Position numbers and translations under genes: made by a program. Below the pieces are notes generated by a model. The model was not told where the DNA came from. It worked only from the letters and a program-made list of their open reading frames with translations, and searched no databases. Below are positions 10,851 through 60,739 of a stretch of 64,000 nt of DNA, piece by piece. This DNA is from Euglena gracilis (taxonomy: Eukaryota), in assembly GCA_039621445.1 (NCBI GenBank), contig CP154954.1, positions 40,851,572 to 40,915,571 on the forward strand, given 5' to 3'. The number at the start of each line of letters is the position of its first letter. Within the stretch, counting starts at the first letter, position 1.

Positions 10851-11149
10851 GATGGGGAGCATCGAGTCCAGGGCGGTCCTTACGCCAAAAAAAAAATCCT
10901 GTCCCGATACACTTCAACCGAAAAATAAGGATTTTGGCCGGGGAAATTTTTTGAAAGTTACTTTGAAAAATGAACCCAAAATACATGATTTTTTTGATGG
11001 AAAACCACATTTTCCACAAAAAAAATATCCAGAATTTAGGGTTGAAAATTGTTAGATTTTAGGAGGGGGTCAAAAAAATGCAGGTCCAAAAAATGGGACA
11101 CTCAAATTTCTCCGAAAGAAATTAATTTTTCAAATCGGGTGATTTTCTG

Positions 11150-11545: not shown

Positions 11546-11736
11546 TGGTGACAAAAAAAAGATCCTACGCGGGGCAACTAGGGACCCCGGGTCGGGGGGG
11601 GGGCACTCCTCACCCCCACCTGTTGTTTAAAACGGAGCCCAATTTCAGAAAGGCCCTGGCCTGAGCCCACCAGGGGCGGAAAACAGTGGTTGCAGCCCCG
11701 GAGGCCCCCGCAGGCAAGAGTCCCGAACCACCAACA

Positions 11737-12950
11737 TGGTAAGCAGAGGTGTATTTGCCAACTACGTTGGCAAAGAAATTTTCAGCTCAGCATCCCAATC
11801 CTTGGGAATTTAAATCTGTGAGGGCCAAACTGAGGAACAAAGAAAAATGGAGGCTGAAATCCTAGCTTATCGGATGGATTTTTAAAGGAACGATGTGAAA
11901 AAGCCATTGGGCATTCTCGTGGCCCCGAATCAACTTGTCCATATCAATCTCGTGGGGATAACTGTTTTTTTCTTCTTTAAAAACTTCAGGGGAAAGCCTA
12001 ACTAGTTCACTGCCAGACCAGGGGAAAAGGGAGGCCACCCATGCAATGGTTGAATCCTCCCACTAGTGTCAAATTGACTGTGAAACGGAAAGGGAGGTGG
12101 ATCCTGCCAAGTTATGCGAAACGGAGGATTGTTTAATCGAATCACGGTGGGTACCAACCAGAAAGCAGAATTTTGGGGACAATCGAGAACCTGAAGTTAA
12201 ATCAGAATGTTTTGAACCCTGTCCAAATGTTTTGCACTTGAAAGGTGTGGCTTGTTTGACCCCTGGATGTCGTTTCAATCCCCAATCTTCTTCTGTGTGG
12301 TATGCATCTGAATCTTGGGAGGTCGGCGCAAAATCAGCACAAGGTCACGAAAGTGCAGATATTTCAGAAGTCACAGAATCTAAAACTTCTTATGACCCTT
12401 GGGATGAGTGTTTGAAGGAGGTATCACAGAATTATTTTCGAACACTTCTTCTCAGCATGAGAGACTGACGAAACTGGTGGATCTTCCCAGCCAAAGCCAC
12501 AGTGAGTCCAGCCACTTGGAGGGACGGATTGCTCAAACTGAAACCCGTCTGAGAATTTTGGCAGATGTATTTCATGAACTTTTCGCAGGAACTTGCAGTG
12601 AAATTGAAAACCTTTTTTCTGAAAGCATCCAGTCCTTGTGCCAGAAAGGCGAGGCTCCGTCAAAACGGCAGGACAGTGAAGAAAAGATTTCGGAAGAAAT
12701 TTTTCGTGATGAATTGCAGACACAGTTGAAAACTTTTGAATTGCAAATCCCTAAAATGTTGCAAGTCAGTGAAAAAAAAATGTCAAGTGCAGAAAATGTT
12801 GTCTCTAAAAACCTCAGATCTGAACATCATGCAAATTTGCAACCATGTGAAGTTTCCCTTGCAAAATCTTCTTCCGACTTGAGTGTGAGGCAAAGAAAAT
12901 GGATTTGTGCGAAAAAATAAGGAGGTACGGAAAAAACCGTTGGAATAAAT
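11737..12950 (+). pseudogene. Truncated 5' part (PBS-like motif plus gag start) of a third LTR element of the same lineage
   Basis: AACA|TGGTAAGCAGAGG; CEGQTEEQRKMEAEILAY resembles YESETEEEKQAENAIIQQ of ORF 3228..3584; coiled-coil-like ORF 12408..12920. Confidence 0.45.
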
Positions 12951-14440
12951 TCTCTTGGAGACCTTCGTGGCCCAGCAATAATTTCTGGTTTCCTGATTGG
13001 TAGGGTTGGGACTGGCCTGTGAATACTTGAAATGGATGGGGATGGTTTTCCCCATACCAGTGGTGGTGCCCTTCTTTAACTTCATTTTGCACAGCACAGG
13101 TTTTAACCAATCACACACGCAAATCAGCACAATCACAGAGGTTCGTGAGTCACAGTGTGTTTGTATCATGTTTTGTGCAAATCTGCTGTGTTTCTTTGTG
13201 CCAAAGATTCCGAGTTGGATTTTAATCTTGAACAAGATGTGGGATAATTCCTTTGCGACATCATATCCGCTGATGCAAAGAATCTGCAGCAGATTGACGG
13301 CATTTTCCTGCAGACTTTTCCTGGTTATTTGCCTGGCCCATCAACATTTTGTCCAGGAGTGGAAATCGCAGTTTACTGTTGGTTGTGAAACTTACTTTTA
13401 AGGGGGGGGGTGAATTTTCCACGAAATGTCAGAATCTAATACCCAAGAGACGTTCTTATGGACATACATGTTTGTGGCCCAGTGCATCATTCGGTTCCAC
13501 CACGAGTCTTGATGGTTTGAATCTTCAGGCTGGGACTGCTACGTACATTTCTCACAAAGTTTTTGTGTTTGATTCATTCATTTTTTGTGTTTGTTTTCAG
13601 TGTGGCTTCAGGTGGGCAGCCCAGTGTTTTTGGTGACTGAAAAATTTGAGGAAGAGAACCTCAACTTTACCACCGGTTGCCAAGTTGTGTCTTTTTGAGA
13701 GGCGCCAAGGAGGGGTACCGAGAGTGTTGTGTATTCTGGTAGGAATGAACACTCCTGTAGAAGCACGCTCAGAAGGGCCCAGGGTTCCGAATTTGTGTTA
13801 CGGTCGACCTGGGGATTTTTTTGTGACCAACCCACAGTTTTCAATTGATCAGTGACGAGGGGGAGAACATACACAGGGGTTGCTGTGTCCGCAACATCTC
13901 TTGTATAACCCCCAAGAAATGAAATCTCCTGGGAACAAAGTTGGGTGGTTGTGTTACTGAGTGCCCCAAAGAAATGACTCAGTTTTCAGTTTTCGGTTGT
14001 TTCTTGTCTCATACAGAGCTTTCAATACAGCCAAAAGGAAAGTTCCCAAAGGGGGAAAACCCAGGACTTGAGAAAGCACAGAAAACACGCGGAAAAGGTC
14101 AGTTGAACCCTTTTATTGTGCATTGGAGTGCGGTGCTGAATTTTTTATGAATCTGCGAGTCCTCACTGTTTATGACCAAAGACTGTGTTTTGTCGCTGAA
14201 CGTGTCTTTCTTGTTTTTGTTCTATGCTGTGCAGGTTTCACAAGTGCCAAGGAGTTCAAATGGAGGCATCAAACACGCCTGGGGTTCAAGATGACAACGT
14301 TGACATTGAACAACAACGAGACAACATTGAGCAGACATCTTTAACATTTTTTGAGTGCAGACATCGCTGTGGATTATCTGTGGATACATTATTTACAGTG
14401 GATACATTTTACACAAGTGCTGTGGAGTGAAGCTTAATGG

Positions 14441-14650
14441 CTGACCACACCCATGGGCAGATAGGGCGGCCTGGGACCAGAAATTTCGACCCTGATGACC
14501 AGGATGATCAAGCGCACAACCTCTTGGGACCAGGACGACATCCGCTCCACGCTCCAGGCCGAGTGCTACCAGCTGTTGGCGCTGGCTCTCGTCTGGCAGA
14601 TGGCGCAAATGCTGCGCCCGAAGAACATCGTGCGCTTAAACTGCTCAGCC
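14441..14650 (+). pseudogene. Possible C-terminal remnant of an RLE-type (CRE-like) non-LTR retrotransposon
   Basis: TPMGR*GGLGPEISTLMTRM...YQLLALALVWQMAQML loosely fits the GGLGxEA...QxLSxALxRxNA pattern of such C-termini. Confidence 0.3.
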
Positions 14651-16924
14651 TCCCCAGTCAACAACCAGACGAGGCACTCTCCCCACAGCCTCACCGGTGG
14701 ACCATGGTAACAGCTGCTGAAAGTCAAACCCGGAGTCTCGGACCGCTGCTGCATTTCCCCGATACCGATATTGTGATCAGCATTGATCACAATAAAACAT
14801 CCCCACCACTCGGTTACCCTGCCCGAGGGCAGCCATGCGCTCGGCCCATCTGTACTTTGCCACCCACCTCTCACGCGCGCTTCTCTGCACCTTGGGCCCC
14901 GGCCCTGCTGTACTTCTCTCCCTTGCCCGAGACACTCAAATCCAGTAGGCTGTGCCACTGGTCAGTGGATTCGGTTCGCCCACCACCGTTCCCATCGATC
15001 CCCGCTGACCACACCCAGCCTTGGGCAATGGCCCAATGCATGGTCAAGGCCAACGTGCCAGGCCCACAGGTTCGGCACAGAAACTGTGCTTTCCGCTTTC
15101 AGGTTTGGGTTGTTCAAAGCTGTGGTTTGCTGTTCTCTCTTCCTCGTGCAGTTAGTTGGGGCGGGGGGAGGATGTGCAAGCCATGGTTATTGTTGGTGAC
15201 TGACTGGTGGAATCAAAAATAACACAGTTGGAATTTTTTGACAGAATTTGGATACCCTGTGAGACGTTTGGGTAGGAGCTGGACTTCATCATTTAGTGAC
15301 TGTGACTGTTTTGGTCATACCCTGAAATGGATGAATTTTTAAACAGTTTTGATGAATTTTCCACTTTCCCTTTTCTTTTCGTGGAATCGGGATTCCGGTT
15401 TTGTAGCCAGGAGTTTTTAACCTGTGATCCTCCGGCACTGGATGACGTTCGGGATGGGGGTCAGTGTGAAGCCCATCCTTTGTGTATGGTGGTAGATTTC
15501 AGTTTCATTTCAGGGGATTTGGAAATTACGGCCCAGGTTTGTTTGTTTTTTTTTTGTTTGGAGGCCAAAGCCAGGTTTATGCCCCCCTGCCCTTTGCTGG
15601 GGGGGGGAATAACCTGGGCTGGAAAAATTGGATTTGAATTTTCGGCATTTTTAAGTTTGCCATGTTGTTCGACCCTCATGGCCCCGTGTGACTGGTGGGG
15701 GGCAGTTAATTTAAATTGGCCAGCCGGACTGGTTGATTTTTTTTGGCATCGGTGTTCGGTTGAGCCCAGGGTTGGGCTTGGATGACCTGGCCCATATGCA
15801 ACGGTATGCTGCTGGATTTTGTTTTTGTTGGTTTGATTGTTCTCGGTTGGACTTTGTTTGTTGGATGTGGCAGGTTGGAATTCTCGATTGGATTTTGTCG
15901 AGGGCTTTTGTGGGCCCTGGACTTGTTGGCTGGATTGTGAATTTTTGAGGATTTTTGTTGCTGGATAATTTTTATTCAAAGAGTTGCAAAAAACCTGGGA
16001 TTTTTATAATTTCCAAGGGGATGGAAAAAGCTTTGGATTTTGGATTCTCTGTTTTTTTAGATTCGGTTTGGATTGTGACTGTTTATCAAAGGCATTTCTT
16101 TCCCATGGAACACAGCTTAGAGACATCCGAACTCAGGGGGGAGGGGGCTGCACTGGATATGACCCCTCCTCCGTCCACAGGCCCTCGTGGGCACTGAAGA
16201 CCTGTGATATGGTTGCCGCGGGCCAATGTGAAGCCCTGTTTTCTTTGGGAATAAAAAATCCACCAGGCATGACAAGGAAGTGAGTGTGCATACGGATAAA
16301 ACACACCTGCACATGCACACGAACCCCTACACCCACTGTACACTATTCCATATAACCGCCTTACCCTCGCACCCTCACAGTCTTCGCCGTGTGCCTTTAT
16401 TCTCACCGAACTGCCCCAAATTGGGAAGGAATGCCTCGGTTTCCATTTTTCCACAAGAAATCTCTTTCTGAGGCACTGTTTGTCAAAGTCCCTGATTTTT
16501 TTGAAAACATCGAAATCGAATGAAGTCTCACACATGAATGCTGCCGAAAAAAAGAAAGCATTTTCACCAAGGGGTAGCGTGGGACTTAGGCCGTGTGGTT
16601 GAGTGCCCAGAGGTGGTTTTTTTCAGATTTTTTTTCAGACTTTGTGTTCAAAGACCCGTTCCCCATGGTGTCAGAGGACTGGGGGGGGGGGGGGGGCTGT
16701 TCCCGTGGACCTGATTTTTCAGAGTCCCTCCAGGTTCCGGATCTTATGGAAGGGGGGGGGAGTGTCTGACTCATAACACCGAAAGAAAAAAAATGCGACA
16801 AGACCCGTTTCAAAAAAAAATCAGAATTTTCGCCCCAACAAAAAACAACAACAAATTTTCTCTCGCAATTTTATTCGGGGACGGGGGGGGGCAGAAAAAC
16901 GTGTCCGACAAAAAGTCTCAAGGA

Positions 16925-17315
16925 AGGGGGTGTCGGCTGCCGCTGGCGGCGGCAGCCAAAAATGAACAAAAAAATACTGAAATCCCCCCGGTAGGAACCA
17001 GCAAGAACCAGTCAAAAAACCCGCACAAGGAATTTGAACCCCAGGGAATCCCAGACGGACAGTCATTCGAGAATTGTGGAAAGATTTGAAGAAAGACATA
17101 AGGAATTGGGAATTTAAAAGAATTGACAATTGCAAAGAAACCAAGGCATTGCTTTCCACCTTTTTTTCCAACAAACAAACAGCTAACCTGAACCAAATGT
17201 ACTCGCCCACCGCATAGCAGGTTTGTTTGTGCCTTGCTGTTTGCTACGAAGTAGGTTGGTTGGTTTTGTATTTGTCCACCTATTTGCTCTGGAAGTTGGT
17301 AAATGGAAAAACACA
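16925..17315. repeat. Dispersed repeat, copy 2
   Basis: Homologous to 11150-11545. Confidence 0.85.
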
Positions 17316-17319
17316 AAAA

Positions 17320-19090
17320 AGGTGGCAAGAAAATGTTTTGCCTCCTCTGGGTGGATTTGCCTGGTTGCCCCGGCACACTCGTATTCCCTCAGAATGTTCT
17401 GGGCAGTCCTTATTTCTTGGGGAGTTTTGAAGGGAATTTTTAAGTACATCTGAGGGGTAGGGGAAGGTCTGCCATAACCCCCTCCCTTATCAGGTTTAAT
17501 ACCTCTCTGCTGGCTCCTGCTTTGACCCAATAGGAAATGCTGGCCTGCAGGGCCTTGTAAGCGGGCACCCCTGGGTGTAATGTGTCTGTGGATTACATAG
17601 GCCCCATCACTGGGGTCCTTCACCTGGTTGCCCCAACACTGGGGCCACCTCTGGCTGCCCCATCACTGGGGCTACAGCTGGCCCTCCCATATGGCTTCCC
17701 AAAGACAGGCTTTCCCCCTGTTTTCGAATGATGGGGGAAGGTCTGTGTCTGCAGTGGGGAGGTACATAAAATGCTGGGCTGATTATCTTCTGGGGGGAGG
17801 GCTGTCTGAGCCAATCTTGGGCCTCCCCCCCCCAAGGGCTGTGTGGATGGTCTTGAATGTATTGGTATGTATTGGCCTTTTGGGCCATATGGCCTCCACT
17901 GGCCCTCAGGACTGCCTGGTCTCCATTGGCATTCTCCCCAGGACTTCTCTTGTCTCTTCTCTGTCCCCTGTCCTGGCATGGGCTTGCTGCCCCTGGGGAG
18001 TTTGTTTTTGACGGTGCTGGAGGGAAAGTTGGACAAACCTTTCCCGAATGGGATCTTTCAAGATTGGGATACTGGCTGTCATAGCCTTGTCCCTGGGCCC
18101 ACTGCCCTCTTAAAAGATGGCTGCCATAGCCTTGCCCCTGGGCCCACTGCCCTCTTGAATGATGCCTGCCATAGCCTTGAATCTGGGCCACAGGCCCTGT
18201 TGAATAATGGCTTCCATAGCCTTGATTTTGACTTGAATCCCTTGAATTTTTGATTTTTCTTGAAAGGCTGCCATAGCCCTTGCTTTGTCCCGTGGAAGGA
18301 GGGGAGCAGAGAAAAGGGGGTGGAGTCTGTTGGACCTGTGGTGAAACTCCCTTTCTGTCTTCTTGCCTTCCTGACCACATTTTTCCATGGTCCATGTCTA
18401 TCATCATGTTGAGTGGGGGTATTTCGAAGTATTTGATGTGGCGGTTGGTGGGGGGGTTGCGATGGCCACGGACTGATGTGCTGCTGCCGCCTCTCCAGCT
18501 TCTTCAGCTGCTGCTGTGTCACCACCTTCCCCAGATTCTGCTGCCCTCTGGGAAGTTCTTCGAAGTTCTTCTGGGCAGTCTGAAGTTCTTTGAAATTCAT
18601 TATTCATGGAAGTCCAGATGTTGGTATTTGTCTTAGGAATTGCAATACTTCTGGGAATAATTCCATTTGAACTCGAAGAGGTGAATTCTTCGTCCAAGAA
18701 GTTGAAGGTCAGACAAAAGTTCGGTCCACCAGTTGACGAAAGTGATGGTCTTCGTGAACGGAAATACTCGCAAAATAATTCCAGTTGAACCGCTAGAAGT
18801 AAAATTATTTCTCCTTGAGGTCGAAGGGCAGAATTAGGAATCAGCCAACTCCGGCAACAAAAAGCAGTAAGAAGCACATCCCGCGCACGCACAAACACAC
18901 CAGAACAGAGCAGCCGGCAACGAAAGCAGGACCCCGCCATCCAGCAGTGTGGAGCCCGAATGGTCAGCAGAACAAGGCGGTGCGCGGAACAGCACGGTCT
19001 TGTTCGTCTTCATCGCCATCTTCGCCTTGCGCTTGGAGCGGCGCAAATACTCCCGAAAGGCACTCGGGGCCGTCGAGATCATGCCTGAAG
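17320..19090 (-). mobile_element. 5' fragment of a DIRS-like element (terminal motif, gag-like region, start of RT)
   Basis: Terminal motif gtcctgctt..tgccggctg..ggtgtg..ttcttact..ttgttgccggagttgg shared with ~33285 and ~56750; AQNILREYECAGATRQIHPEEAKHFLATFFV resembles a DIRS RT N-terminus; 45-bp tandem units at ~18075-18285. Confidence 0.5.
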
Positions 19091-19092
19091 GC

Positions 19093-19800
19093 CGTGAGTC
19101 AGGGGTGCTGAGTGCCCTTGTTAGTTAGCTAACCACACGCGCTAACCTTAAAAGTAAACCCAGGCGCCAACAGAACTAACCAGGTGACGTGACCCAACCA
19201 GGGGCCTACAGTTTCTATGATGAAACAATTAGGAAAATACCCTCCTAACGGAATATTAACCTCTGGCCACATTTTAACCACTGACTTTGCAACCCGTTCC
19301 ACAGGGATCTGTCACTACCCTGTCATTACTCAATCTGATTATCCATTTGCCATTGGCATATTTGGTTGAAGTTTCAAGTCAATTCAAGTTTGTCACGAAT
19401 TCATTGAAGTGGAAGTTGATTATCTGTTCAAGTATTGGTCTTGTAGTCTGAAGTGACGTCTGAAGCAGGAATTGTTGCTGCCGGTGTGCCTAAGAAGTTT
19501 CCCCTGTTCGCTGGCATCGAAGACTGCTCACTGACCACGACCTGCAATTTGAAGGCATTTCGCTGCTTTGAGCAATACCTACAGGTGTCTCCTACCCGAT
19601 TCGTGACCCTCCAAGGACCCACCACACCAACCCCAAAAAGGAAAAAGGTCTTTTCAAACCACAGGAAATGAAACAATTTTTAACAAGGGCCGCGCGGGGA
19701 ATTGAAATTCAACTGGGCAGGGTGATCGATCCTACGCTGGGACAGGGAAACCCCATGGACCTGGAACAAGCGGAGCAGCAAAAGGGGGTTATCCCGTACA
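19093..19800 (+). repeat. 5' LTR
   Basis: (C)GTGAGTC...CCCGTACA; about 26 substitutions and 1 indel versus the 3' LTR by manual count (~96% identity). Confidence 0.95.
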
Positions 19801-19802
19801 AA

Positions 19803-19814
19803 TGGTAGCAGAGG
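19803..19814 (+). promoter_or_regulatory. Primer binding site complementary to the 3' end of initiator tRNA-Met
   Basis: TGGTAGCAGAGG 2 nt after the LTR-terminal CA; complement of CCUCUGCUACCA. Confidence 0.9.
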
Positions 19815-19899
19815 GTTTTTGCCCATTTTCAGTTCCCCCGAAGGCGGCTGGACTGAACAACAGGAAAATACCACAGAACCACAGGCATCTGTCTCATCA

Positions 19900-22800
19900 G
19901 CCGTCGCTAGGTCGGCTGGTTCAGAGGCAGATGTCCATTTCAATGACCCAGCAACAGGAATCACAATGACAGAATTCACAATGACCGCCCCACAAAACTT
20001 GCAATGGAACCAGGAACCTGAACAATGGAAATACGACACAGAAACGACCACAGACATGGCCAGGACCCTGGGGTGCGACATCGACATTGCACAATTGTCG
20101 CAGATGACAATTGCAATGGTCGAAATGGAACAGGGTGGGGAACAGAACCCCAGGACACAGATTCAAGAGGAAACAGGACAACACAGTTCACGGACACCTA
20201 AGACGACGAACTGGGAGACATCTATCAAGACACACAGCCGCTGCAGCTGACATACCACCCAGAACCCAGAACGGACACTCATAACCAACTGTTGAGTCTG
20301 GAAGAGGCAAGGCAGAGCCCGAACGAAGACCGCTTCCAGGTCAACGGTGCAGGGGTGGATGAACCTGAGGCGGAATCAGAACATTACGACTGGTTCGCCG
20401 ACACAAACTGGTGGTCCAGTTTCGTACAAAACATGACGGAATTCCAGCATGATTTCCAAACTTTCAGGCGCGCCACTGAGTTTGTGAACCAGAAAACCAC
20501 AGAGGTGATTCAACGACTTCAAAACACCACGGAACTGCAGTAAAACGCTTGGAACAGCAGCTGATTACTCAGGGGGAACGGACAGAAGGGTTGGTGTGGC
20601 GAACAGAAGGCGGGTATGAAGAGCTGTCACAAACCTGGCCACGGTAACTGAAAACTTGGAGGTGATGGTGACAAATCAAAACAGACTGTACTGGGACACT
20701 TTGAGAACCTGGGAAAACAGATTCGGGACATGAAGGGGATGGCTGGGCTGCTGGACGAAAAAATAAACGGGTTCCAGGGTTTGCTGTAAGTGGCAGGGGG
20801 AAGCACACAGACCCAGGGGCAACACCTCATAGGGTTACTCGGCCAGCAGAAACGAAACGAGCAGGTGCTACAAGAACTGCAGATGCGGATGCAGGGGGTC
20901 GAGCAGACAATGGCTGGGTTGGCTGAAAGTCAACGGGAGGTGAAAATCACGGGGGACAGAAACAGAACGTCAGGTTGGGACTTTGGCAGGCAACTGTGAC
21001 GAGACGCTGAAAGAACTGAACCACAGGGTTCAACAAACACAAGAACATTTTAACAAGGCAGTTAAAGGCCTGAACGCAAGGGTAGAACAACTGTCCGAGG
21101 GAAAACACGACCAAACATTGGATCAGCGGATGATCACACTTTCACAGGAAATGACCACTTTGACAAGACGTTTGGACACCCTGGCCTCAAACGACGAAAA
21201 CAAAAGAAGATTTGACCGCCTGAACCAGGAAATGACTGGGCTGGGACACAAAGTGGAGGAATCGGCCCAGACCTTCAGGAGGGTACTGGGGTAATTCCAA
21301 AAGTGGGTTTTCAAGACTGGGTCGCAGGAAGCCAGTGACCCGGCCAGGAGGATCGACATGTCATCCACACTGGGACAGAGGGTAAACAAGGTGGGACGGT
21401 TGGAGGCACAGCTGACAGACCTGGCCACACGAACAACACTGAAAGAAATGCAAGACTCTGGAATTTGGCAGCAGCAGTGTATATCGCTGACTGCCGAGTT
21501 CCACAGTCAGAACCAACTGTGGCAAACGAAATGGAAGACCACTGAAAAAAGATTAAATGAAGTGACTGAAATGACGCAAAAAGCAAAAGAAAAATTTGAA
21601 AAACAGTCACATTCATTCTCAGCAGCCTCTGGCCTTCCCAGCGACCAGCGCCAACAGGGGACGGGGAAAACCCCAGAAACCCCAGCCCCTGGGCCAGTGG
21701 GCCAGATGTCCAGACGGATAACGGAACCACCAAACGGGAAGGGGCAAACCCAAGAACCCCAGCCAGCTGCTGCAGCAAGGCAGAGAAGCCCAGGCCCAGC
21801 CACAGCCACCACGGGGCAGGGGCTGGCATCTGGGCCCCATCCGGAGGCTTGGGCAGAACTGATGGGGTTGGGGGGACCCCAGCCAGCGGCCCCAGCCCCA
21901 CAGCCAGCTGCCTCGGCCCCACAGCCAGTGACCCCAACGTCTGGGTCCGAGGGAGGGGACCCGAGGACCCCATGGACAGCTCCGGGGGGGGCCCCGAGGA
22001 CCCCAAGGACCCGTGCCAGGTGTGAGTTTGGACCTCCCCGACCTAAAAACCCTAATGGTGCAAACGGTGCAAGAAGAATTAAAAAAACTTTGAATCCGAC
22101 AGCCCCCCCCCCCCCATCTCAAAGACCCAACCCCCCAAGTCCCCACATGTGTTTGAACTTTCAGCCGACGCCCAACCTTTTCAACCCCGACCTAAACCGA
22201 CAGACCCAATGCTGGAACACCAGCAGCGATTGGAGAGGGAACTGTTGGAAATCAAAACGGTGATGCAACATCAGAGTCAGCAACGGGAAAACACAGGTCC
22301 AGCCAAATATCACAGCCGCGAACGCGGCATCTGTTCACATGGGTGACAGAAGAAAACCCAGGGCCAGAAAACACAGCAGGTCCCCAAATCGGCAGCACAT
22401 ACACACCCATTTTTCATGTGGGGGCAGAAACGGTTGTCGCCCCAGTGGCAGCACAGGCCGCCCCCTCCATTGGGCTGCTGATGGGACCAGCGGGTGCAGC
22501 CATGACAAAAGACCTGGTCAGACAACTCGTACAAGGAAATTTTGCGGATTTTTCTGTGAAATTTCCCATCTACCTAAACCGTTTGTCCGCCGGGCAGGGA
22601 CCCCTCACAGATCACATGAAATTAACAATTTTGGAGGGAAGCCTTGACGACACGGGCCAGATGGAGCTCCAGCGACGACAGGAACGGGGAGAAAAAATCA
22701 GGTATCAAGAATTTTGAAATTGGCTCTGTCAAAAGTACGAAGGGTACACCCAGCTCGCAATAAAGGAGGAGCTGAAAAACCTGAAACCCAGGTGTGATTG

Positions 22801-23866
22801 AAAACTGACTCTGGGTGCATGGAGGGAGTTTGAAGCACGCTTCAAACTGCTCTACAGTCGGTTGGAACACCCCTCCACAGACGATGCATATGCATTGGTC
22901 GCTGAACGGATGCCTGAAATGTTGCGCAGAAACTGCATTCGTGAACTAGACAGGAGGAACCAAGACAGACCCACCCTGAAAATGAAGGGGCTGACAGACG
23001 TACCTGGGATCCCAGACGCAACCAGGGAAGACGTAACAAGACTGGTGGCAGCCACACTTGGAGCTGACGAAAGGTTCCTCGTGACAGCCGACGGAACTGA
23101 TTTCATCATCACCCTGAACGGCAGCAGGGCGTCCCAGCTGCTGATGATGAAAAACGGCACAGCCCTGGCTTCAGGACACCAACCCAGATTCACAGTGGTA
23201 CAAAGAAAGCTGTCCCTGGAAGAGATGTTTGCAAGGTTGGAAACAGAACTGAGGTGTCAGGAACAATCTGACACGTTCGCAAAGAATTTCAGGGGATGGC
23301 AGAACCGGCCACTGGAACATCGATCAAGATCCAAGGACAAAAGGGGGTATGTCCGGGAGGTGAAAGTAAACAATTATTCTCGACCCAGAAGTAAAACGCC
23401 CCCACCTGCCCTTTCCCGTTCGAATTCACCAAAACCCAGACCACCCACTCCGGAAAAGGAGAGGCAGCCTTCGGGTGCCCCACAACCCCAGCCCCCAGCC
23501 CCCTACAATCAGGGACAGAGTCAAAATCAGGGCCAAAATTGGGCAGGCTGGACCACTGTGGATTACAGCAAGGAGAAAGGAAAAAGCAAGGGACAGGGTT
23601 CGTATCCTGACCAAGGCAAGGGAAAAGGGTCTGGGAAGGGGAGCGGGAAGGGAAATTCAGGAAAAGGTCAACCGTCCTGGCAGTCGACACAGAACTCTGG
23701 GACAGCCGGACATCCCAGATACGTACCACCTCCAGATGAAGGACGGTTTTACAACTGTGAACAGCCGGGACATTTCAAATGGGAGTGTCCACAGCCACCG
23801 CGGTGGACACAGAAAACGGCAGCACCACAGACTGGACAGAAGGTTGCTGCCCAGGGGCAGAAGTGA
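19900..23866 (+). pseudogene. gag: gag (long coiled-coil N-terminus, capsid-like region, degenerate CCHC zinc knuckle), broken by stops and frameshifts
   Basis: ORFs 20983, 21358, 22343 and 22862; FYNCEQPGHFKWEC fits CX2CX4HX4C with the first Cys lost. Confidence 0.8.
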
Positions 23867-24079
23867 AGTAGCGGAAGGAGGGAGGGGACGAGAGGGGCGA
23901 CTCTCTGGGTAAACAAACCGAACACAGGGACAGAAAGGATCCATTACCGGAGCAGAAACAGCGAACGGAGGGAGGTAAGGGATCCAGGGGTTCATACCAG
24001 AAAACACAAAACAGACAAGGACAAAACACAAAGACTCTGGTGCCACGGGAGGAGGCTAGCTGCAGGTTTGCGCGGGCAG

Positions 24080-24510
24080 CCTCCCGTTGGATCACCAACC
24101 AGTACTAAGTGCAGACCAGTTTTGTGAAAAAATCATCTCACATTTCGGTTTGCAACCACAGGTGGATGCTTTCGCCACAGAACAGGACAAGCGGTTCCCG
24201 CGTTCGTGGGCACCAGACATCCCACAGAACACAGATGCCTTCCAAAAAGATTGGCAGGGCTGCCTCCTGTGGTTCAACCCACCGTTCGACAAAATACCAG
24301 AGGTGATCAAAAAAATTCAGACAGACCAGGCCCACGCGGTTTTGGTGGTACCTCAGTGAAAACACCCAGTTTGGTACCCACAGGCCAGAAAGCTGGCCCT
24401 CATGTTCATGACTTTTCCGGCAAAAATCAAATTTTTTTGGCAGGGTCGGCAAGGGTTGCAGGGAAACACAGTGGCCAGTGGAGGTGCTGCTGGTGTGTGG
24501 GCACACGGAA
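24080..24510 (+). pseudogene. Dam-like DNA N6-adenine methyltransferase domain
   Basis: VDAFAT, DAFQKDW, LWFNPPF, VLVVPQ*KHPVWYP and QWPVEVLLV; same motif series as the DIRS MTase at 60740-61190. Confidence 0.85.
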
Positions 24511-24699
24511 CGCTGTGATTACCTGAAGGGCTTCCACCAGCACATGACCCCCCCACACCCAACGTCCAAGGTCAACTTCGGGTCAGTGCAATATGTTCCA
24601 CCTTTGGAGACAGGGGAGGGGTGTGATGAACACCAGCCACTGGGGAAAACAGACCTGCCGGGGAAAAACGTTTTGGACCGTTCGGCAGAACTGAAACTG

Positions 24700-25290
24700 A
24701 AAATGCTGGACCTTTTCTGCGGAACCAAGTCGGTCAGCCGAACATATTAAAAAATGGGGTTTCAGGTGGTGACGGTGGACCTGGACCTCAAGTGGCAGGC
24801 AGATTTTCAGGTGGATGTCTTGACGCTGGACTACAAATAAGTTCCAAAACCTGATGAATTCCACACGGTGGTCTGTGGAGTTCCCCACACGGAATTCAGC
24901 CTGGCACTCACAACCAGACCATGACAAATGGAGAAATGGGACGCATTGGCCAAAAAGGCGCTGGAGATCGTGAAGTTTCTGGACCGCAGAAATGGTGGCT
25001 GGGAAATCCCAGACATGGGTACCTCAGACACAGGTAGTACATGAAATCATATCCATTTGTGGATGTGGATTATTGTCAATACTCCGACTGGTGGTACAAA
25101 AAGCCAACACGAATCTGGGGCAGCCCAGATATCCTGCAAGTGCAGGGAAAGCTGTGTGACGGGAGAACGTGTCCCAACCTGATCCCAGGACAGAAGGGTC
25201 ACCGGGTGAAAATCTCCAACACGACGAGTATTTCCAGAAACAAAAAGTATCGAATTCCAGAAAAACTGATCCCAGATTTGGCTGGTTGGA
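24700..25290 (+). pseudogene. C5-cytosine DNA methyltransferase domain (compact type)
   Basis: MLDLFCGTKSV (motif I), VVTVDLD, VDVLTLDY, GVPHTEFS (decayed PPCTEYS, motif IV), WWLGNP (decayed ENP, motif VI), VDYCQY..YKKPTRIW (motif VIII); four stops and one frameshift. Confidence 0.8.
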
Positions 25291-25479
25291 AAGATGAACA
25301 AACCAAACGGGAGCCTGCGGCACAGCCAAAAATCCCACGGAGGCACCATGAAAACGTTCACCTGCCAAAACCGTTGTTTGGGCCAGAATCGGAACGACGG
25401 TTGGGAGAGGTTATGAAACGGGGGAAGTCCAAGCAACTTCTGACTGGCATTCGTGCGGTCTGCCCGAATGGTGAAACGG

Positions 25480-25790
25480 TGGACATGAAAGCCCTCGTGG
25501 ACACAGGGGCCCAACCCAACCTGATCAGAAAAGACCTTCTACCCCCAGGAGCCTTCACGGTGTAAAACCACCACTTGGCCCTCGTCACTGCCGACGGCAC
25601 ACGGATGGGGGGAAGGTTGCATGAAACGACACTGACACTGAAATTCACGGCCCAGATTTTCAACCAGGACAAAACAAGGGAATGGACAACCACAGGGACC
25701 TTCCACGACGCGTCAATCCAAGTGGATGCCATTTTGGGGTATCCCCGGATGGAGCAACACCACTTAGGGGTTTTTCCACACCTACATTAA
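25480..25790 (+). pseudogene. Aspartic protease
   Basis: MKALVDTGAQPNLI and VDAILGYP. Confidence 0.85.
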
Positions 25791-26199
25791 TGGCCCTGAT
25801 AGGGAAACCGTTGCTCCTGCTGACAAGTTGGAAGGGAGTCGAGGGACGGGAACAGTATGACAGAAAATTTGGAAGAAAATCAGCAAGGTGCGGGCTATGA
25901 ACCTGCAGGTGCCTGCGGAAGCAGGTGAAACGGAAGAAATTTCGTTTGAATACGAAACAGTTTTGAAAAATCTGGAAACCAGAAAACGCAAAGCCCGACA
26001 GGGGGTCCAGGGGGTGATAGCCGTGCCTGAAGGGCAGGCTGTGGACGGAGACGGGGTGACAGATTTGGTCGCAAAGCTGCGCAAAGACTGCGAGGGAGTG
26101 GTGTTGAGGGACAAGATCTACCCAAACCCCCCTGAACGTGGTCCACTAGGCTTCGGGAAAAAAGAACTCAAGCCTGGGACTGTGGCAAAAAACAAAGAC

Positions 26200-26830
26200 C
26201 CATCCACATGACCGGAGAACGCCGACAGGCACTCCTGGACATGGTCGACGAGTGGGTCAGGGATGAAAAAGTGGAGGATGGGAGAAGTGAGTGGTCCAGC
26301 CCCACGTTCGTGGTGGCCAAGAAAGGGGGAAAGTGGAGGGGGGTGGTGGATTTCAGGGCCCTGAACGAGGCCACGGTGACAGACGCACACCACCTCCCCC
26401 TATCGAAGACATCCTGGTCCAACAGTGTCAACGGGCAATGTACAGTGTGTTGGAGCTAAAGGATGCTTTCCATCAGGTACACATGAGAAAAGAATCCCGA
26501 CCCTACACCCGATGTAGTACACCAAGAGGAACAAAGCAGTGGAAAGTAGTGGTGATGGGGATGAAAAACGGAGTCCCAATTTTCCAGAGGGTCATTGAAT
26601 ACAGCCTGGAGGAGGTCGCAGACAATGCCAACCCCTACTTGGATGACATCACCGTAGGCACAGTTTGGCAGGGAACGGAAGAGGCCACAATCCTCCAACA
26701 CGACAAGGACATCCGCAGAGTCATGGAGGCACTCAAGAAACAGCTGCTCGTAGCCGACATAAAAAAGTGTAAGTTTTTTGTTCATGAAGTGGAATTCTGC
26801 GGACACATCCAGGGGGGAGGACAACGGAGA
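26200..26830 (+). pseudogene. pol: Reverse transcriptase (Gypsy type)
   Basis: WSSPTFVVAKKGGKWRGVVDFRALN, LELKDAFHQV, VMGMKNG, YLDD and KKCKF..EVEFCGH. Confidence 0.95.
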
Positions 26831-27109
26831 CCAGCCCCAGGAAAACGGATGCCTGGAAAAGTGGGAAGAACCGAAAACCATCACAGCCCGCCGCGCATTC
26901 CTGGGTTTCACCAACTACTACTCCTCCTACATCCCAGGATACGCGGAGCTGGCAGCGGATCTGATGGAAAAACTCAAGGTGAAGAAGGGATTGGGGAAAA
27001 AGGGGAGCCAGATGCCTGTGTTTTTCGGGGAGAAGGAACGCAAGGTGTTCCAGGCCATCAGGGACAAACTGTTGGGCAGCCTCAAACTGCAAACGATCAA
27101 CCCCGACAA

Positions 27110-27530
27110 GCCATTCACCCTCCGAGTGGATGCCAGTGGCAGGGCTGTGGGGGCTGCCTTGGAGCAGTTTGTGGAGGATGGATTGGGGAAACCGGACACC
27201 ACAACGGCACAGACCAAGAAAACTGCCCCAGTGGCCCTTTGTTCACGGAAATTGGCACCGGGACAGGTCAGGACTTGGACAGCACGGGACAAGGAAAGAT
27301 ACGCGGTGATACTGGCCCTTCAGAAATGTGCCTCATGGATCGGTATGCAACCGGTGGTCCTGACCGATCACAAAGCAATCGAGTCCTGGGCCACAGAAAA
27401 CCTGGAAACAGCCACAGGGTTGTCGGGACGTAGGGCCAGATGGCACGAACTCCTTTCAAAATTTGATATCACGGTGGCCTACGTACCTGGGAAGGACAAC
27501 GTGGTGGCTGACGCCTTGAGCAGGTGGGCC
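27110..27530 (+). pseudogene. RNase H
   Basis: LRVDASGRAVGAAL, DKERYAV, LTDHKAI, RRARW and GKDNVVADALSR. Confidence 0.93.
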
Positions 27531-28199
27531 TATCCCGCCTCACAGGCGTTTGCCGACGTCAGTGTGCACGGCAGTGAGTAGGATGACCGTCTCATGCAAG
27601 AAATAATCGAACAGGAAGGAGGAAAGCGGCTGCTCAGTGGTTTCAATGAGGGAATTGCTACGGGCACTGAAAAAAATTGGGAGACGCACCCCTCGTTGTG
27701 GCCGTCACAACAAGGGGAGGGGCCAAGACTGGTGAGGATTCGGCCAAAACGAGTAAAGTCACACCAGGGGAGGAGACCCCCGCAGAAAAAACTTCGAGAA
27801 CTTCAAAACCCAAGGACAGGGACACCGAAGGCACACAAGAAGAGGGAACCCCAGAAAAAAAAATGGCCAAGAGGACAGCCACAGAGGAAGACCCCCCTAG
27901 GCGAAGAACCTTGGAAGAGGACCCTGTGGACCCTGCAAAAACAGCAAGTCCAGGGGAGGACGGACTTGAGGACGCGCAGCGTCCCTCATCTTCGACGAGC
28001 CTGCCTGTGGGACCTCCATCAAGGGGAGTGCATGCCCCGGAGCTTCCACCGACAGGGTCGCAGTCGGTGATGGACGAGGACTGGAGGAGCGGGTACAGCG
28101 GGTGCCCCAAGTGGGGCCCTGTGCTCAAGGGGTTGGAGGATTTGGGGTTCAAAGAATGGCCTGAGGGCTTCCGATTTGAAAACGGAATGCTCTTCAAAC

Positions 28200-29280
28200 A
28201 CACACTCTTGTGTGTACCAAGGGATGTCACGGGGAGGGTCGTCAGGGAACACCACGAAGCGGCGGGACACCCAGGGGCTGAACGGCTGTGGGATCAGATG
28301 GGTCGGTGGTTTCTCTTCGCCGACCACCAACACGCAAAAAGGCTGACCAGCAAACTGATGGGGATGTGTGAAACGTGTCAGGTCACTGAACCGAACCATC
28401 AACCCTTCAAGTGTCCGACACAACCAACACCGGTCCTGCCTCACCTGATGGACAGCGTGGCAGTCGACCTCTTTGCACTACCGGAAACCACTTTTGAAGG
28501 GAAACGGTACGACACTTTGGCACTTTGTGTGGACCGATTGAGTGGGTGGATGGTTGCTACCCCCCATCTTAACAAGGGTCTCGCAGCAGAAAAGGTGGCC
28601 AATAAATGTTTCGACAGTGGGATCTGTTCGGAATGCCCTCGGTGGTGAGTTCTGACAGGGGTCCACAGTTCACAGCATCCTAGTGGAAAACTCTGTGCGC
28701 GGCACACGGTGTAAGGGTTGCTTATGGACAGGCTTACCACCATCAGGCGAACGGAAGGGCAGAGGTACCGGGCAGCAGGTGATGCGGAAACTTGCAAAGC
28801 TGGCTGCAGAAAACGGTGTCCCGTGTGTGGAACTCCTCCCACGGGCAATGAGAGCCATTCACGACGTGCCTGGGGAGGCTGGACTGTCCCCCTACGAGAT
28901 TGTTTTTGGGCGAAACCGACCGTTGTGTGGGATTCCGCACAAACCACAGCAGGAGGCCGAATGTACGACAGAATTCCTCAAACGAATGAAGGAACAAGAC
29001 AGGTGGGTGGCACAAACGCTCAATGAAAAACTGGAGGCTCGGAAAGAGGCTGTGAACCAGAAACGACGTGAACCCCCAGCCCTGAAAATTGGTTCCAAGG
29101 TTTGGTACCAACCTGAACGACAGCCTGGAACCGACAAGTTGGAAACCAGGTGGAAAGGGCCAGCGGTGGTTTTGGAAAGAGTGGGAGACCACTCGTACGT
29201 GGTGGAGCTTAAACCAGGGAAACGGCAGCCGGCCCACCGTTCCCAACTGAAACAACACGTGGAAGACCTTTACTCAACTA
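28200..29280 (+). pseudogene. Integrase (HHCC zinc finger, DDE core, GPY-like module)
   Basis: HHEAAGHPG...CETCQ, VAVDLF, CVDRLSG, SDRGPQF, QANGRAE, GLSPYEIVFGR and KLETRWKGP. Confidence 0.92.
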
Positions 29281-29344
29281 CCCCCGTGCCCTTGTATTTT
29301 TGGTGTGGAAAGGCTCAAGAACTGAAAAACTGGAGGTTGGACCT

Positions 29345-29500
29345 GACGAGTGGGAGGTGGAAAGGGTGCTCAACCACCGACACCAAAACAGGAAGACGGA
29401 ATTTTTGGTGCGGTGGAAAGGATTTGGGCCAGAAGACGACCAATGGGAACCACTGGGGATTTTTTTCTTTAGAACCAATAAGGACGTGGTTGCCTATTGT
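29345..29500 (+). pseudogene. Chromodomain at the integrase C-terminus
   Basis: EWEVERVLNHRHQNRKTEFLVRWKGFGPEDDQWEP. Confidence 0.9.
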
Positions 29501-31495
29501 GTGGAGAACGGGGTGGAATTGGACGCAAAGGAATTGTTGAAAATGATGAAGTGACAAGGTTCCTTGTCTTCTTCATCCACACATTCCATCACAGATGACC
29601 CGACATCGACGTCAACAACGCCAACACCAACCTCAACAACAGCAACATCACCACCCCTACTTTCGACCTCAGCCCCCTCGATGGCCATCCCCTCCCCCAT
29701 ACCAACCACCCCCAACCACTGACTTCATCATCCCCACCATTCTACCCCCACCCCTACGCAAGGCCCTCGTGGCCGAGCTCCCCCCCGCCAGCTGCTGTAG
29801 AACGCCCACACCCACCCCTACCCAGCCTACAAGCTACCCTCCACCCCCAGCCATACACATACCCACCCCAATACCACCCCAGCCCACCCCAACAACGACA
29901 CCCCCCCCCGGAGGGATGGCGGGCGCTCCATCTGCAGCAGCCCCCGCAGCCCCCGCTCCCTCAGCCCCCCCCTCTACCTCGGGACCCCGGACCGGAGCCC
30001 GTCGCCCCGGCGTCGCCGACCTCCCCCTCCTCCTCCGACAACGACTCGCCCCCGCGACGCCCCACCCCCTGGTGCCTCCGGGACCTCTGGGGCTAGCTCC
30101 CCCCTGGAGGCTCCCCCCCCCTAATATTGGTTCGGGCTGCCCCCCCCCCCCCCCGCAGCCCCCTTTACCTGTCCAGAGCCCTCGGACCGTTTCTTCAACC
30201 GCAGTGGGAAGGGAAGCTGTCCCACACTGAACCTGGGGCGCCCCCCCCCCCACACCGGGTGCTCCCCCCAACACCGAACCTAGGGTGCCCCCCCCCCCCT
30301 CAGCGAACCAGGGTACCCCCCGCAGGACCTGGGTTCCCCCCCAACGGGCAGCGCAAGGTCGGGGCAGAAAATTTTTATTAAAAAAAAAGAGGGGAGCGGC
30401 CCTTGGCGCCTGCCGTTTTCCCCCCCGACAAGGGACCTGGGATGGGTCCAGCCACCACACCAAAAAAGCAAAAAAAACCAAAAAAAAACGAAAAAAGACG
30501 AAAAAGGAAAAGCAGAGGGGCCCAGCCAACTGCCCCCCCACCAAAAACAGGGACCGTGGGCAGCGCTTGGCGCCTGCCCCCCCCCCGTCGACGAAGGGCC
30601 CAGAAGGGGGGGCAACCCCGGACCTGCAAAAAACAAAAACCAGATCCTGGGTTGGCCACACCTGGTCTGACCCAAAGCGTAGAGGGCTCAACTGAAACCC
30701 AGCAGCCCTCTGCTTAATTTGTGCATTTTTCAACTCGGCAGACGCTTGACGAAAGAGAGGGGGTTGAACGGAAGTCGGGCATTAATGAACCTGCTGCCCC
30801 TCCCACGCCTGACAGAGCTGGGGGCACCAGGACACACCCCTGGGAGCATTCAAAAAAAAATTGAAAACAAATTTTTGGCTGAGGTGGGCAGCGCTTGCCA
30901 GCCCTCCCCCCCCCCCGGTACAGCTGGACCTGGGGGGGGGGGGTGCGCCACCGAGACTGAAAAAAAAACACACAAAAAAAAGAAAACCACCGGGGGTCCA
31001 GCCAACTGCCCCCCCATAAAAAACAAAAAAAAATATTTTTTTTTGGCTGGGGACGGTGCTGGACGCCTGCCCCCCCCCCTATGGGGGGAACCAGCCACCT
31101 GACCTCCCCTGAAAAAAAAACTGGCCCTGCCCCAGTCTCATTTTGACCGAAAGACCCCGACTCAGCCTTCGCTTGATTTTTGTGTAAATTCGCCCCTGGC
31201 CTGCTACTGACCGCTTGGTAGGCGGAGGCGGAACCGCCCGAACGGGAGCTGCCCCCTTCTCAAAAAAAACGGGGGCTGTGGTAGGCGCCTGGCGCCTGCC
31301 CCCCCCCCCCACACGACAAGGGACCTGCGGGGGACACCCACCTGAAGAAAAAAAACAAACAACCAGGCCAACCCCTCCCCGAGGGATCGTTTGACCAGCC
31401 TGTGACCAAAAACATGAATGGCCCAGCCCCGTTGCAACAAACGCGACTCCGCACCCCTGCCTAAGTGAGTCGAGAAGAGTTGTAAACAACTCGTT

Positions 31496-31506
31496 GGGAA
31501 GGGGAG
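31496..31506 (+). promoter_or_regulatory. Polypurine tract
   Basis: GGGAAGGGGAG directly before the 3' LTR. Confidence 0.85.
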
Positions 31507-32213
31507 TGTGAGTCAGGGGTGCTGAGTGCCCTTGTTAGTTAGCTGACCACACGCGCTAACCTTCAAAGCAAACCCAGGCGCCAACAGAACTAACCAGGGG
31601 ACTTGACCCAACCAGGGGCCTACAGTTTCTATGATGAAACAATTTGGAAAATACCCTCCTAACTGAATTTTAACCTCTGACCACATTTTAACCACTGACT
31701 TTGCAACCCGTTCCACAGGGATCTGTCACTACTCTGTCATTACTCAATCTGATTATCCATTTGCCATTGGCATATTTGGTTGAAGTTTCAAGTCAATTCA
31801 AGTTTGTCAGGAATTCATTGAAGTGGAAGTTGATTATCTGTTCAAGTATTGGTCTTGTAGTCTGAAGTGAAGTCTGAAGCAGGAGTTGTTGCTGCCGGTG
31901 TGCCTAAGAAGTTTCCCCTGTTCGCGGGCATCGAAGACTGCTCACTGACCACGACCTGCAATTTGAAAACATTTCGCTGCTTTGAGCAAGACCTACAGGT
32001 GTCTCCTACCCGATTTGTGACCCTCCAAGGACCTACCACACCAACCCCAAAAAGGAGAACGGTCTTTTCAAACCACAGGAAATGAAACAATTTTTAACAA
32101 AGGCCGCGCGGGGAATTGAAATTCAACTGGGCAGGGTGATCGATCCAATGCGGGGACAGGGAAACCCCATGGACCTGGAACAAGCGGAGCAGCAAAGGGG
32201 GTTATCCCGTACA
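31507..32213 (+). repeat. 3' LTR
   Basis: TGTGAGTC...CCCGTACA, direct repeat of 19093-19800. Confidence 0.95.
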
Positions 32214-32789
32214 AAAGGCAAATATAAAAAGCATCACCATTGAACAAAAAAAATTGCAACCAAATGCTTGAAATGCTGCCATTTTTGTGGAATTGGAACT
32301 TGAACAATCACGGAAGCATGCAACAAAAACGATTGTATTTCCCACCCTTGTGTGCTTGTGGTGGACATTTTCTGAAGAGAGAAATTCGAGCGGGCCGTGC
32401 GTGCAGGGGGGGTGCTATAGCACTACCAACCCCAAATCCCGACCCCCCCCCTCGGGAGGTTGAAAGTGCCTTACCACCCTAACTGCCCAAAACACCCCAC
32501 CCAGGGGGGGTGTGACTTTCCCTAAAAACAACCCTGTTTCCCGCACGGAAACCCCCATCAGAAAAGAATTTTTGCACCCCCGCCCAGGCTCAGGTGGATT
32601 TTTTCTATTTTTGGTCTTCTTGCTCAGTGAAAATATTGGGGTAAATGGGCAAGAAGTTTTGGCATTGCTCAGCAAGAGCAGGTCGACGCCAGGAAAAAAA
32701 AATTGATTCCTGGCACCCTCGGACCAGCTTCCATCCACCCAAATCATCACAACCGTGCTTTTCGACTGTTCAATTTTTTTTGCCCTCAT

Positions 32790-60700: not shown

Positions 60701-60739
60701 TCGTTAATGGTTGAATTTTGTACTTGTTTCCCCTCCAGA

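Follow-up and report, generated by a model that had tools for sequence, protein, structure and literature searches.

A decayed chromovirus-like LTR retrotransposon that probably carries a Dam-like and a compact C5 methyltransferase module ahead of its protease

Can a long terminal repeat (LTR) retrotransposon carry, within a single polyprotein, modules that would write two different DNA marks? The question is raised by a 13.1-kb LTR retrotransposon on the + strand at positions 19093-32214 of a 64-kb stretch of DNA, which is referred to as a whole as the window. The parts of the element follow one another in the order gag, Dam-like methyltransferase (MTase), C5 MTase, protease, reverse transcriptase (RT), RNase H, integrase and chromodomain. 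A preliminary description of the locus had proposed a chromodomain-containing Gypsy element with tandem adenine and cytosine MTases fused to the protease, and had considered this combination new. The identity of the element as a dual-MTase, chromodomain-containing Gypsy LTR element is almost certain, and it is probable that 19093-32214 represents, more specifically, the decayed remains of an inserted chromovirus-like Ty3/Gypsy element of the kind named EpiLTR, with two MTases ahead of the protease. The idea was right, and dual-MTase LTR elements are already in print: the claim of novelty has been superseded by a preprint on EpiLTRs (10.64898/2026.05.21.726589, 22 May 2026).

The motifs from which the two MTases and the protease were first recognized were read from the sequence as follows, and each of those listed in the preliminary description was found at its place.

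24165-24176, + strand, DAFA, Dam-like module
24234-24245, + strand, DAF.., Dam-like module
24276-24287, + strand, NPPF, catalytic motif of the Dam-like module
24706-24732, + strand, LDLFCGTKS, C5 motif I
24877-24900, + strand, GVPHTEFS, C5 motif IV, with PH for PC
24999-25019, + strand, LGNP, C5 motif VI, in place of ENP
25068-25085, + strand, DYCQYS, C5 module
25098-25118, + strand, KKPTRIW, C5 module
25497-25511, + strand, VDTGA, protease

As had been claimed, the tail of the Dam-like module and C5 motif I lie in one stop-to-stop open reading frame (ORF; 24412-24750), and the C-terminal half of the C5 module and the protease DTGA lie in another (25038-25565); the ORF starts given earlier correspond to the first start codons within these frames (24478 and 25041). 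The stretch 23872-25790 contains eight in-frame stops (24106, 24357, 24748, 24838, 24922, 25035, 25563 and 25788) and three frame changes (near 24105, between 24424 and 24446, and near 24981). The Dam domain is broken by the TGA at 24357 and the frame change at 24424-24446, and the C5 domain by the stops at 24748, 24838, 24922 and 25035 and the frame change near 24981. In addition, the catalytic Cys of C5 motif IV is replaced (PH for PC), as is the Glu of motif VI (GNP for ENP). The copy was correctly called dead: with disrupted frames and substituted catalytic residues in C5, it is incapable of the mechanism considered below. Other copies of the family in the DNA sequencing run X1 differ at the stops 24748 and 25563 and at the indel places 24432 and 24981, indicating that these lesions are private to this copy.

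Whether the two MTases belong to the polyprotein is answered by relatives. Three metagenome proteins, P0004 (544 aa), P0005 (840 aa) and P0023 (891 aa), each representing a different 90%-identity cluster, were found to contain Dam, a linker, C5 and the protease DTGA in one ORF, which upholds the earlier view that both MTases are part of the polyprotein and not later insertions. P0004 aligns with 24105-25544 of the window at 48-56% identity (tblastn, E down to 4e-93) and crosses both the Dam/C5 and the C5/protease junction without a frame change, and residues 417-716 of P0005 cover 24942-25784. The same domain order along the window was recovered by tblastn of the intact relatives. In Pfam, P0004 exceeds both cut-offs (Dam 31.9 bits vs 28.1; DNA_methylase 22.6 vs 22) and P0005 falls under both (21.5 and 14.2).

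Is the second module a genuine C5 MTase? The broken C5 pieces of this copy gave no Pfam match on their own, and the C5 piece P0002 and the relative P0005 each gave no match among PDB sequences; weak matches of another C5 piece, P0003, to a solute-binding protein and unrelated chains were taken as chance. Because the pieces of this copy match nothing in Pfam or the PDB, the C5 assignment rests on relatives. The C5 domain of this copy is 73% identical to that of P0004 over 185 columns, and the two are sisters in a 64-row C5 tree (SH-aLRT 97). PF00145 (DNA_methylase) was matched by 16 of the 17 domain-sized relatives that were aligned, with a best E of 5.9e-8. No variation was seen among the 17 in the PC dipeptide, in ENP or in a D.DYC...GY.KPTR.W block, at just 37-54% identity to the first sequence. 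Motif I reads FCGTKS in this copy and P0004, and F(S/C)GTGS in other relatives. The profile of the C5 family matches DNMT1 (E 1.2e-6), with PPC..S falling on PPCQGFS and ENP on ENV.

An AlphaFold model of the relative P0007 reached a mean pLDDT (predicted local distance difference test score) of 82.4, with the last ~40 residues disordered. Searched against the PDB with Foldseek, it matched DNMT3B, DNMT3A, DNMT1 and DIM2 (E from 1.8e-8, probability 1.00). Among viral models, it matched a putative cytosine MTase of Tetraselmis virus 1 at E 5.8e-21, with a template modelling (TM) score of 0.84 on the target and 32% identity across the full 218 residues, and a fragment of an iridovirus DNA methyltransferase appeared at rank 48. 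The C-terminal half of the module carries its own conserved signature, common to the viral enzymes. Given the PF00145 matches, the invariant PC and ENP, the DNMT1 profile match and the fold matches, the module is, as judged from predicted structure and profiles, a genuine, compact-type C5 MTase of ~200 residues, and its nearest named relative by modelled fold is a giant-virus enzyme, that of Tetraselmis virus 1.

By its sequence, the first MTase module is a putative short N6-adenine MTase of the Dam-like (PF05869) type found in DIRS elements. With the internal TGA read as X, the Dam stretch scored 30.2 bits (E 4.3e-7) against a PF05869 cut-off of 28.1, and the first ORF piece alone scored 24.5 bits, below the cut-off. 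The expectation that profiles would recognize the two modules thus held for Dam in this copy; for C5 it held in the relatives, which match PF00145, but not in this copy. The Dam modules of P0004, P0005 and P0023 retain NPPF or NPPY. A structural model of the Dam-like part, built from this broken copy with 8 aligned sequences, is weak (mean pLDDT 65.1).

The element that contains these modules can be delimited at both ends. Its features are as follows.

19088-19092, + strand, 5' target-site duplication AAGGC, identical to the five bases at 32215-32219
19093-19801, + strand, 5' LTR, 709 bp, ending ..CAA (blastn pair, ends read from the sequence)
19803-19814, + strand, primer-binding-site candidate TGGTAGCAGAGG, one base past the 5' LTR (read from the sequence)
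20200-23866, + strand, gag region, coiled-coil and low-complexity ORFs with a CCHC knuckle last (ORF 22802-23866)
23872-24108, + strand, pol leader upstream of Dam, in a frame other than that of Dam in this copy (by-eye likeness)
24105-24560, + strand, putative Dam-like N6-adenine MTase domain (Pfam PF05869, NPPF, tblastn of P0004 residues 7-119 and 112-322)
24697-25290, + strand, compact C5 cytosine MTase domain (tblastn of P0004, P0005, P0023, P0035 and P0159; motifs)
25440-25790, + strand, aspartic protease, VDTGA at 25497-25511, stop at 25563 (weak Pfam matches, tblastn)
26190-26845, + strand, RT, split over two frames (RVT_1 70.1 bits; tblastn of P0035 and P0159)
26835-27677, + strand, RNase H (RT_RNaseH 61.3 bits, RT_RNaseH_2 53.9 bits; tblastn)
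27875-29303, + strand, integrase with zinc-binding part, core and SH3-like part, split over two frames (Pfam, tblastn)
29345-29542, + strand, chromodomain at the pol end/integrase C-terminus (Pfam Chromo 41.7 bits, E 1.1e-10)
29550-31495, no strand assigned, ~2 kb proline-coding stretch rich in C and G runs, from pol to the 3' LTR (ORFs open on both strands)
31496-31506, + strand, polypurine tract GGGAAGGGGAG, directly before the 3' LTR (read from the sequence)
31507-32214, + strand, 3' LTR (blastn pair, ends read from the sequence)
32215-32219, + strand, 3' target-site duplication AAGGC (read from the sequence)

The two LTRs are in direct orientation and 96.3% identical over 709 columns (blastn, 19094-19802 vs 31508-32215); their first bases differ, being C in the 5' LTR and T in the 3' LTR. 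The 5-bp target-site duplication AAGGC is present on both flanks. The candidate primer-binding site TGGTAGCAGAGG may match the 3' end of an initiator tRNA. The LTRs and target-site duplication, together with the RVT_1, RT_RNaseH and Chromo matches, bear out the earlier assignment to the chromodomain-containing Gypsy elements. Weaker parts were recognized as well. The gag zf-CCHC knuckle scored 18.6 bits (E 0.0019), under the Pfam cut-off of 20.8, and no further Pfam domain was recognized in the gag stretch 20944-22717. The pol leader gave no Pfam match, and its end resembles by eye the stretch that precedes Dam in P0005 and P0023. Pfam matches of the protease are weak (gag-asp_proteas E 0.024, RVP E 0.065), and those of the integrase both lie below the cut-off (Integrase_H2C2 22.8 bits, SH3_Tf2-1 20.8 bits); the Pfam rve model found no match in this copy, and the integrase core is visible solely through tblastn of P0159 (residues 1282-1763). 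The stretch 29550-31495 gave no tblastn match to the protein of any relative. It encodes low-complexity, proline-rich peptides on both strands and contains a 66-nt repeat in two copies, at 30484 and 30960; either a different repeat that was inserted there or a 3' region peculiar to the family could account for it.

Is the MTase stretch a property of the family or of this copy? In DNA run X1, 2012 contig pieces with a likeness of ≥90%, of which 497 reach ≥99%, were found on 22800-29560, and all 30 bins were covered; the family is very abundant in this run. Depth, which is no copy number, ranged from 6,161 to 25,215 in the MTase bins and from 8,530 to 96,622 in the pol bins, and only the bin 24156-24381 fell below the pol range. 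Since the MTase stretch is about as deep as pol, it belongs to the family as a whole. The CpG observed/expected ratio is 0.58 and that of TpG and CpA 1.23, alike inside and outside the element. Depletion of CpG with raised TpG and CpA is the usual trace of germ-line CG methylation, and a methylated host would fit.

How does the element compare with known systems? Under the name EpiLTRs, LTR elements that combine DAM, DNMT and chromodomain have been described from Euglena gracilis and Cymbomonas tetramitiformis, and the preprint calls them an epigenetic toolkit in a previously undescribed combination (10.64898/2026.05.21.726589); it was the only source in which a full-text literature search found the term. 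According to it, DAM-bearing LTR elements occur in several lineages, LTR-borne DAMs are derived from DIRS, and Euglena presents a mixed picture of DIRS and LTR elements, with CG methylation as the default and low LTR expression. The Euglena EpiLTRs in that account resemble the element of the window in being Ty3/Gypsy-like with DAM, DNMT and chromodomain, in the CpG depletion and scant RNA, and in the Dam-bearing DIRS-like elements that lie beside it. They differ in that the EpiLTR DNMT is placed as sister to DNMT4, with the Cymbomonas and Euglena DNMTs in one clade, whereas the nearest named relative found here is the giant-virus enzyme. The Cymbomonas EpiLTRs are likewise chromovirus-like with all three domains, but in them the 3' end of pol bears the DNMT, and the Euglena configuration is called "structurally distinct"; in the window the C5 module lies between Dam and protease. 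The layout is not of the Cymbomonas type, because tblastn of relatives detected no C5 MTase likeness after the chromodomain in the window. Membership in the Euglena gracilis EpiLTR family is favoured, at roughly two chances in three, since the high copy number, the scarcity of RNA, the loss of CpG and the DIRS-like neighbours with Dam agree with what the available parts of the preprint describe for Euglena. Beyond that text stand the compact virus-type C5 module and its occurrence at several positions in pol.

Earlier examples of retroelement-borne cytosine MTases are KnitGypsy-Dnmt3 of Klebsormidium nitens and SymbioDIRS-Dnmt3 and SymbioLINE-Dnmt of Symbiodinium, which carry a C5 MTase with catalytic residues kept in the coding region (PMC5890265); the background on these and on the Dam of DIRS elements had been correctly given in the preliminary description. 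In the portion of that study available here, their MTases are of Dnmt3 type or orphan DNMTs and no Dam accompanies them, unlike the compact virus-like C5, Dam-like module and chromodomain of the window. For the Klebsormidium element, Ka/Ks lies below 0.2, as selection on the enzyme would give. DIRS elements with a Dam-like MTase share the PF05869 family and the NPP motif, but have a tyrosine recombinase and another repeat layout in place of the DDE-type integrase region, plain LTRs and 5-bp target-site duplication found here. A DIRS assignment of the element is contradicted by the zinc-binding and SH3-like parts of the integrase, the integrase match of P0159, and the LTRs with the target-site duplication.

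Dam-like sequences also occur elsewhere in the window. A second, better preserved Dam-like ORF at 57739-58623 (+ strand; PF05869 41.2 bits, E 1.9e-10, NPPW) shares 24-29% identity with the Dam modules of P0004, P0005 and P0023 and probably belongs to another retroelement. On the - strand, an RT ORF at 61550-62677 (RVT_1 82.3 bits) is followed by a Dam-like part with NPPW and tyrosine recombinase ORFs, which were recognized by eye and gave no Pfam match; the whole region (~60013-62677) may be a DIRS-like element.

How widely is the compact C5 module distributed, and where in the polyprotein does it lie? A full HMMER scan with a 120-residue C-terminal C5 piece returned 606 representatives of 50%-identity clusters at E<=0.001, with 252 proteins at E<=1e-10 and 5 at 1e-30, and a word-indexed search for longer proteins returned 2 of 439 candidates at E<=0.001, namely P0004 and P0005. 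Ten long matches were scanned with Pfam: DNA_methylase was found at E<=0.001 in six, four of these above the cut-off, and the others gave Dam only (one protein; 27.0 bits, just below the cut-off), protease only (one) or nothing (two). A cluster look-up traced each of ten relatives to a metagenome assembly of ENA or JGI, and no informative name was attached to any of them. The order Dam-C5-protease is shared by the window, P0004, P0005 and P0023. In P0035, C5 lies ahead of RT-RNaseH with no Dam in the ORF; P0159 (1848 aa) has the order protease-RT-RNaseH-C5-integrase-chromodomain, with no Dam detected; and in P0029 (both domains above the Pfam cut-offs) and P0129, C5 precedes Dam. A custom Dam model detected Dam in 10 of the 158 stored proteins, three of which were its seeds; most of the stored proteins are fragments. 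In the 64-row C5 tree, five of the six rows with Dam upstream form one clade (support 93, not starred), with P0022 outside, and the three rows with Dam downstream are placed elsewhere. A search of the ESM Atlas with P0004 gave no usable match. A scan of metagenome contigs with P0004 found two distant loci only, at 32-33% identity, which are not the contigs of P0004 or P0005, and none of the eight ORFs at these loci was named by Pfam.

Free-standing homologues were found on viral contigs. In IMG/VR, the compact C5 gene is encoded in 100 of 151 candidate stretches, from which 80 loci were kept, two with contig names that mark giant-virus bins. With the two metagenome loci added (82 in all, L001-L082; median GC 31.5%), the C5 gene is present in all 82, and RT, integrase, protease and Dam in none. 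Like the Tetraselmis virus 1 enzyme, these MTases share with the C5 module of the element the fold, along the entire enzyme, and the signature DYCQ(Y/F)..WGYKK.TR.W, but they are single genes of ~210-240 residues on AT-rich contigs. Among ten neighbouring ORFs, Pfam named two D5-type primase-helicases and one N6/N4 MTase and left seven unnamed; the former adjoin the C5 gene in L003 and L033 and the latter in L007. In L002, the proline-cysteine of motif IV is replaced by V-C. A quick, unrooted C5 tree was built from 62 retroelement and 58 viral-contig domains, leaving out rows with <80% model coverage, near-duplicates, P0108 and P0160. On one side of it lie 61 of the 62 retroelement domains, set against the 58 viral ones, with two label changes; P0106 is the sole row of the retroelement set among the viral ones. 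Because the tree is unrooted, it gives no direction of transfer.

These distributions also bear on a different reading, in which the host lies outside both species of the preprint and dual-MTase chromoviruses form a large, environment-wide radiation, with a compact C5 module that has common ancestry with enzymes of giant viruses or small DNA viruses, was exchanged once between DNA viruses and retroelements and then came to lie at three or more positions in pol (Dam-C5-protease, C5-Dam, and RT-RNaseH-C5-integrase-chromodomain with no Dam detected). The 606 C5 clusters, the 61/62 split of the tree and the orders in P0029, P0129 and P0159 speak for it, and it is put forward tentatively, as the less probable possibility beside an EpiLTR of a known host.

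What might intact relatives do with two MTases? In the relatives, as their ORFs show, both modules make up the N-terminal portion of Pol and share one frame with the protease; they could be packaged into the particle with Gag-Pol and freed by the protease. The C5 enzyme would then methylate, most likely in a CG context, either the new cDNA or the newly inserted copy, which would thereby bear the default mark of the host from the start. The Dam-like module may add or attract 6mA (N6-methyladenine), and the chromodomain of the integrase, by analogy with chromoviruses, might steer insertion into marked chromatin. The chances that intact relatives methylate themselves in this manner appear about even. 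Methylation of cDNA by the element itself was proposed by the authors of the Klebsormidium and Symbiodinium study, and de novo CG methylation by two DIRS-borne DNMT3 domains, observed in yeast, sets a precedent for the C5 step (PMC5890265). The preliminary description had suggested pre-methylation of the element's own cDNA on both A and C; this, like the enzyme activity of the two modules, is an inference.

Several observations weigh against this account. The Dam step is the weakest, because the domain is short, its model has no fold match and assays of DAMs in E. coli were negative: the Dam match covers positions 22-110 of the 169 of PF05869, the weak Dam model found no PDB fold at E<=0.001 among the 418 matches listed, and a sequence search of the Dam-like part against solved structures gave no match. 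Eukaryotic DAMs are reported to be devoid of the N-terminal catalytic and target-recognition parts and to cause no rise of 6mA when expressed in E. coli, as stated in the preprint (10.64898/2026.05.21.726589). For C5, coverage of PF00145 in the relatives extends at most over positions 2-136 of 324, about the first third; the C-terminal half, which is the DNA-reading part, differs in type from that of textbook enzymes; and the TM scores of the P0007 model against the PDB are 0.39-0.54, about 0.47. When the 2018 study assayed the DNMTs of the Gypsy and LINE elements in yeast, no methylation resulted (PMC5890265). The methylation pattern of the host is inferred from CpG depletion, and RNA of the same species label is scant, with 14 of 12,895,792 reads in run X23 and 3 of 12,895,792 in X24 (~5% of each run scanned, at 90% likeness).

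The short Dam match, the negative E. coli experiments and the failure of the Gypsy-borne DNMT3 in yeast would equally suit modules that are kept but do not methylate, serving in DNA or chromatin binding, as tethers that recruit the host AMT1 or DNMTs, or as S-adenosylmethionine-binding scaffolds; recruitment of AMT1 is offered as an alternative in the preprint (10.64898/2026.05.21.726589). However, NPPF or NPPY in the three one-ORF relatives, and PC and ENP in 17 of 17 sequences despite their low identity, are catalytic residues kept among distant relatives, a pattern expected from selection on catalysis, and a non-methylating role is considered unlikely. It is far less probable still that the compact C5 module acts on RNA, such as the tRNA primer or genomic RNA. 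Dnmt2 acts on tRNA, and the module has no large target-recognition part of the usual kind, its PF00145 match being confined to the first third; but its nearest relatives are free-standing genes on contigs of DNA viruses, and the iridovirus DNA methyltransferase fragment is among its fold matches. Iridoviruses methylate their own DNA.

The least credible account is a chimera: a single Gypsy copy would have received a piece of a DIRS element together with a C5 gene from a virus or the host, or an error of assembly would have brought the parts together, and the domains would then lie outside any working polyprotein. It could draw on the DIRS-like Dam sequences in the window (57739-58623 and ~60-62.7 kb) and on the warning, in the preprint, that nested insertions and assembly artefacts occur in Euglena (10.64898/2026.05.21.726589). 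It is already contradicted by the three separate relatives with the same order in one ORF, by the depth of the MTase stretch in X1, which equals that of pol, and by the LTRs and target-site duplication, which frame a single insertion; nested insertion and capture of a gene in a single copy were rejected on the same evidence. Chance resemblance of the motifs was also rejected, in view of the Dam score above the cut-off, the 606 C5 relatives and the E value of the P0004 alignment.

Elsewhere in the window, a 3.8-kb satellite at 38257-42100 has a 29-bp unit in ~131 copies (73% matches), to which the strong excess of A over T and the ORFs on both strands in this part are due. On the - strand at ~47050-50341, three near-identical sets of ORF translations at a spacing of ~1.2-1.4 kb form a tandem repeat unit (for example, ORFs 47153-47932, 48542-49114 and 49414-50298); runs of G and C are numerous there and across the window. 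Pfam searches of 20 ORFs outside the element found no host gene and recognized only the RT at 61550-62677 and the Dam at 57739-58623; three further matches below the threshold are probably chance. No rRNA, tRNA or other Rfam family was found within the window, and two spliced-leader motifs, one dinoflagellate and one euglenid, gave no match each at <=3 mismatches, a result of little weight, because a stretch of 64 kb can be devoid of them.

What does a retrotransposon of this kind mean for its family and host? If the host is Euglena gracilis, the element itself has already been described. The window adds a fully delimited example, with LTRs, target-site duplication, primer-binding-site candidate, polypurine tract and both MTases ahead of the protease, from a family that is highly abundant in its host. 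The compact C5 module appears to be present in many uncharacterized environmental eukaryotes, in several arrangements. Retrotransposons that carry putative writers of two DNA marks together with a reader of a histone mark suggest that mobile elements can shape how host silencing views them, a question that the preprint of 2026 made testable.

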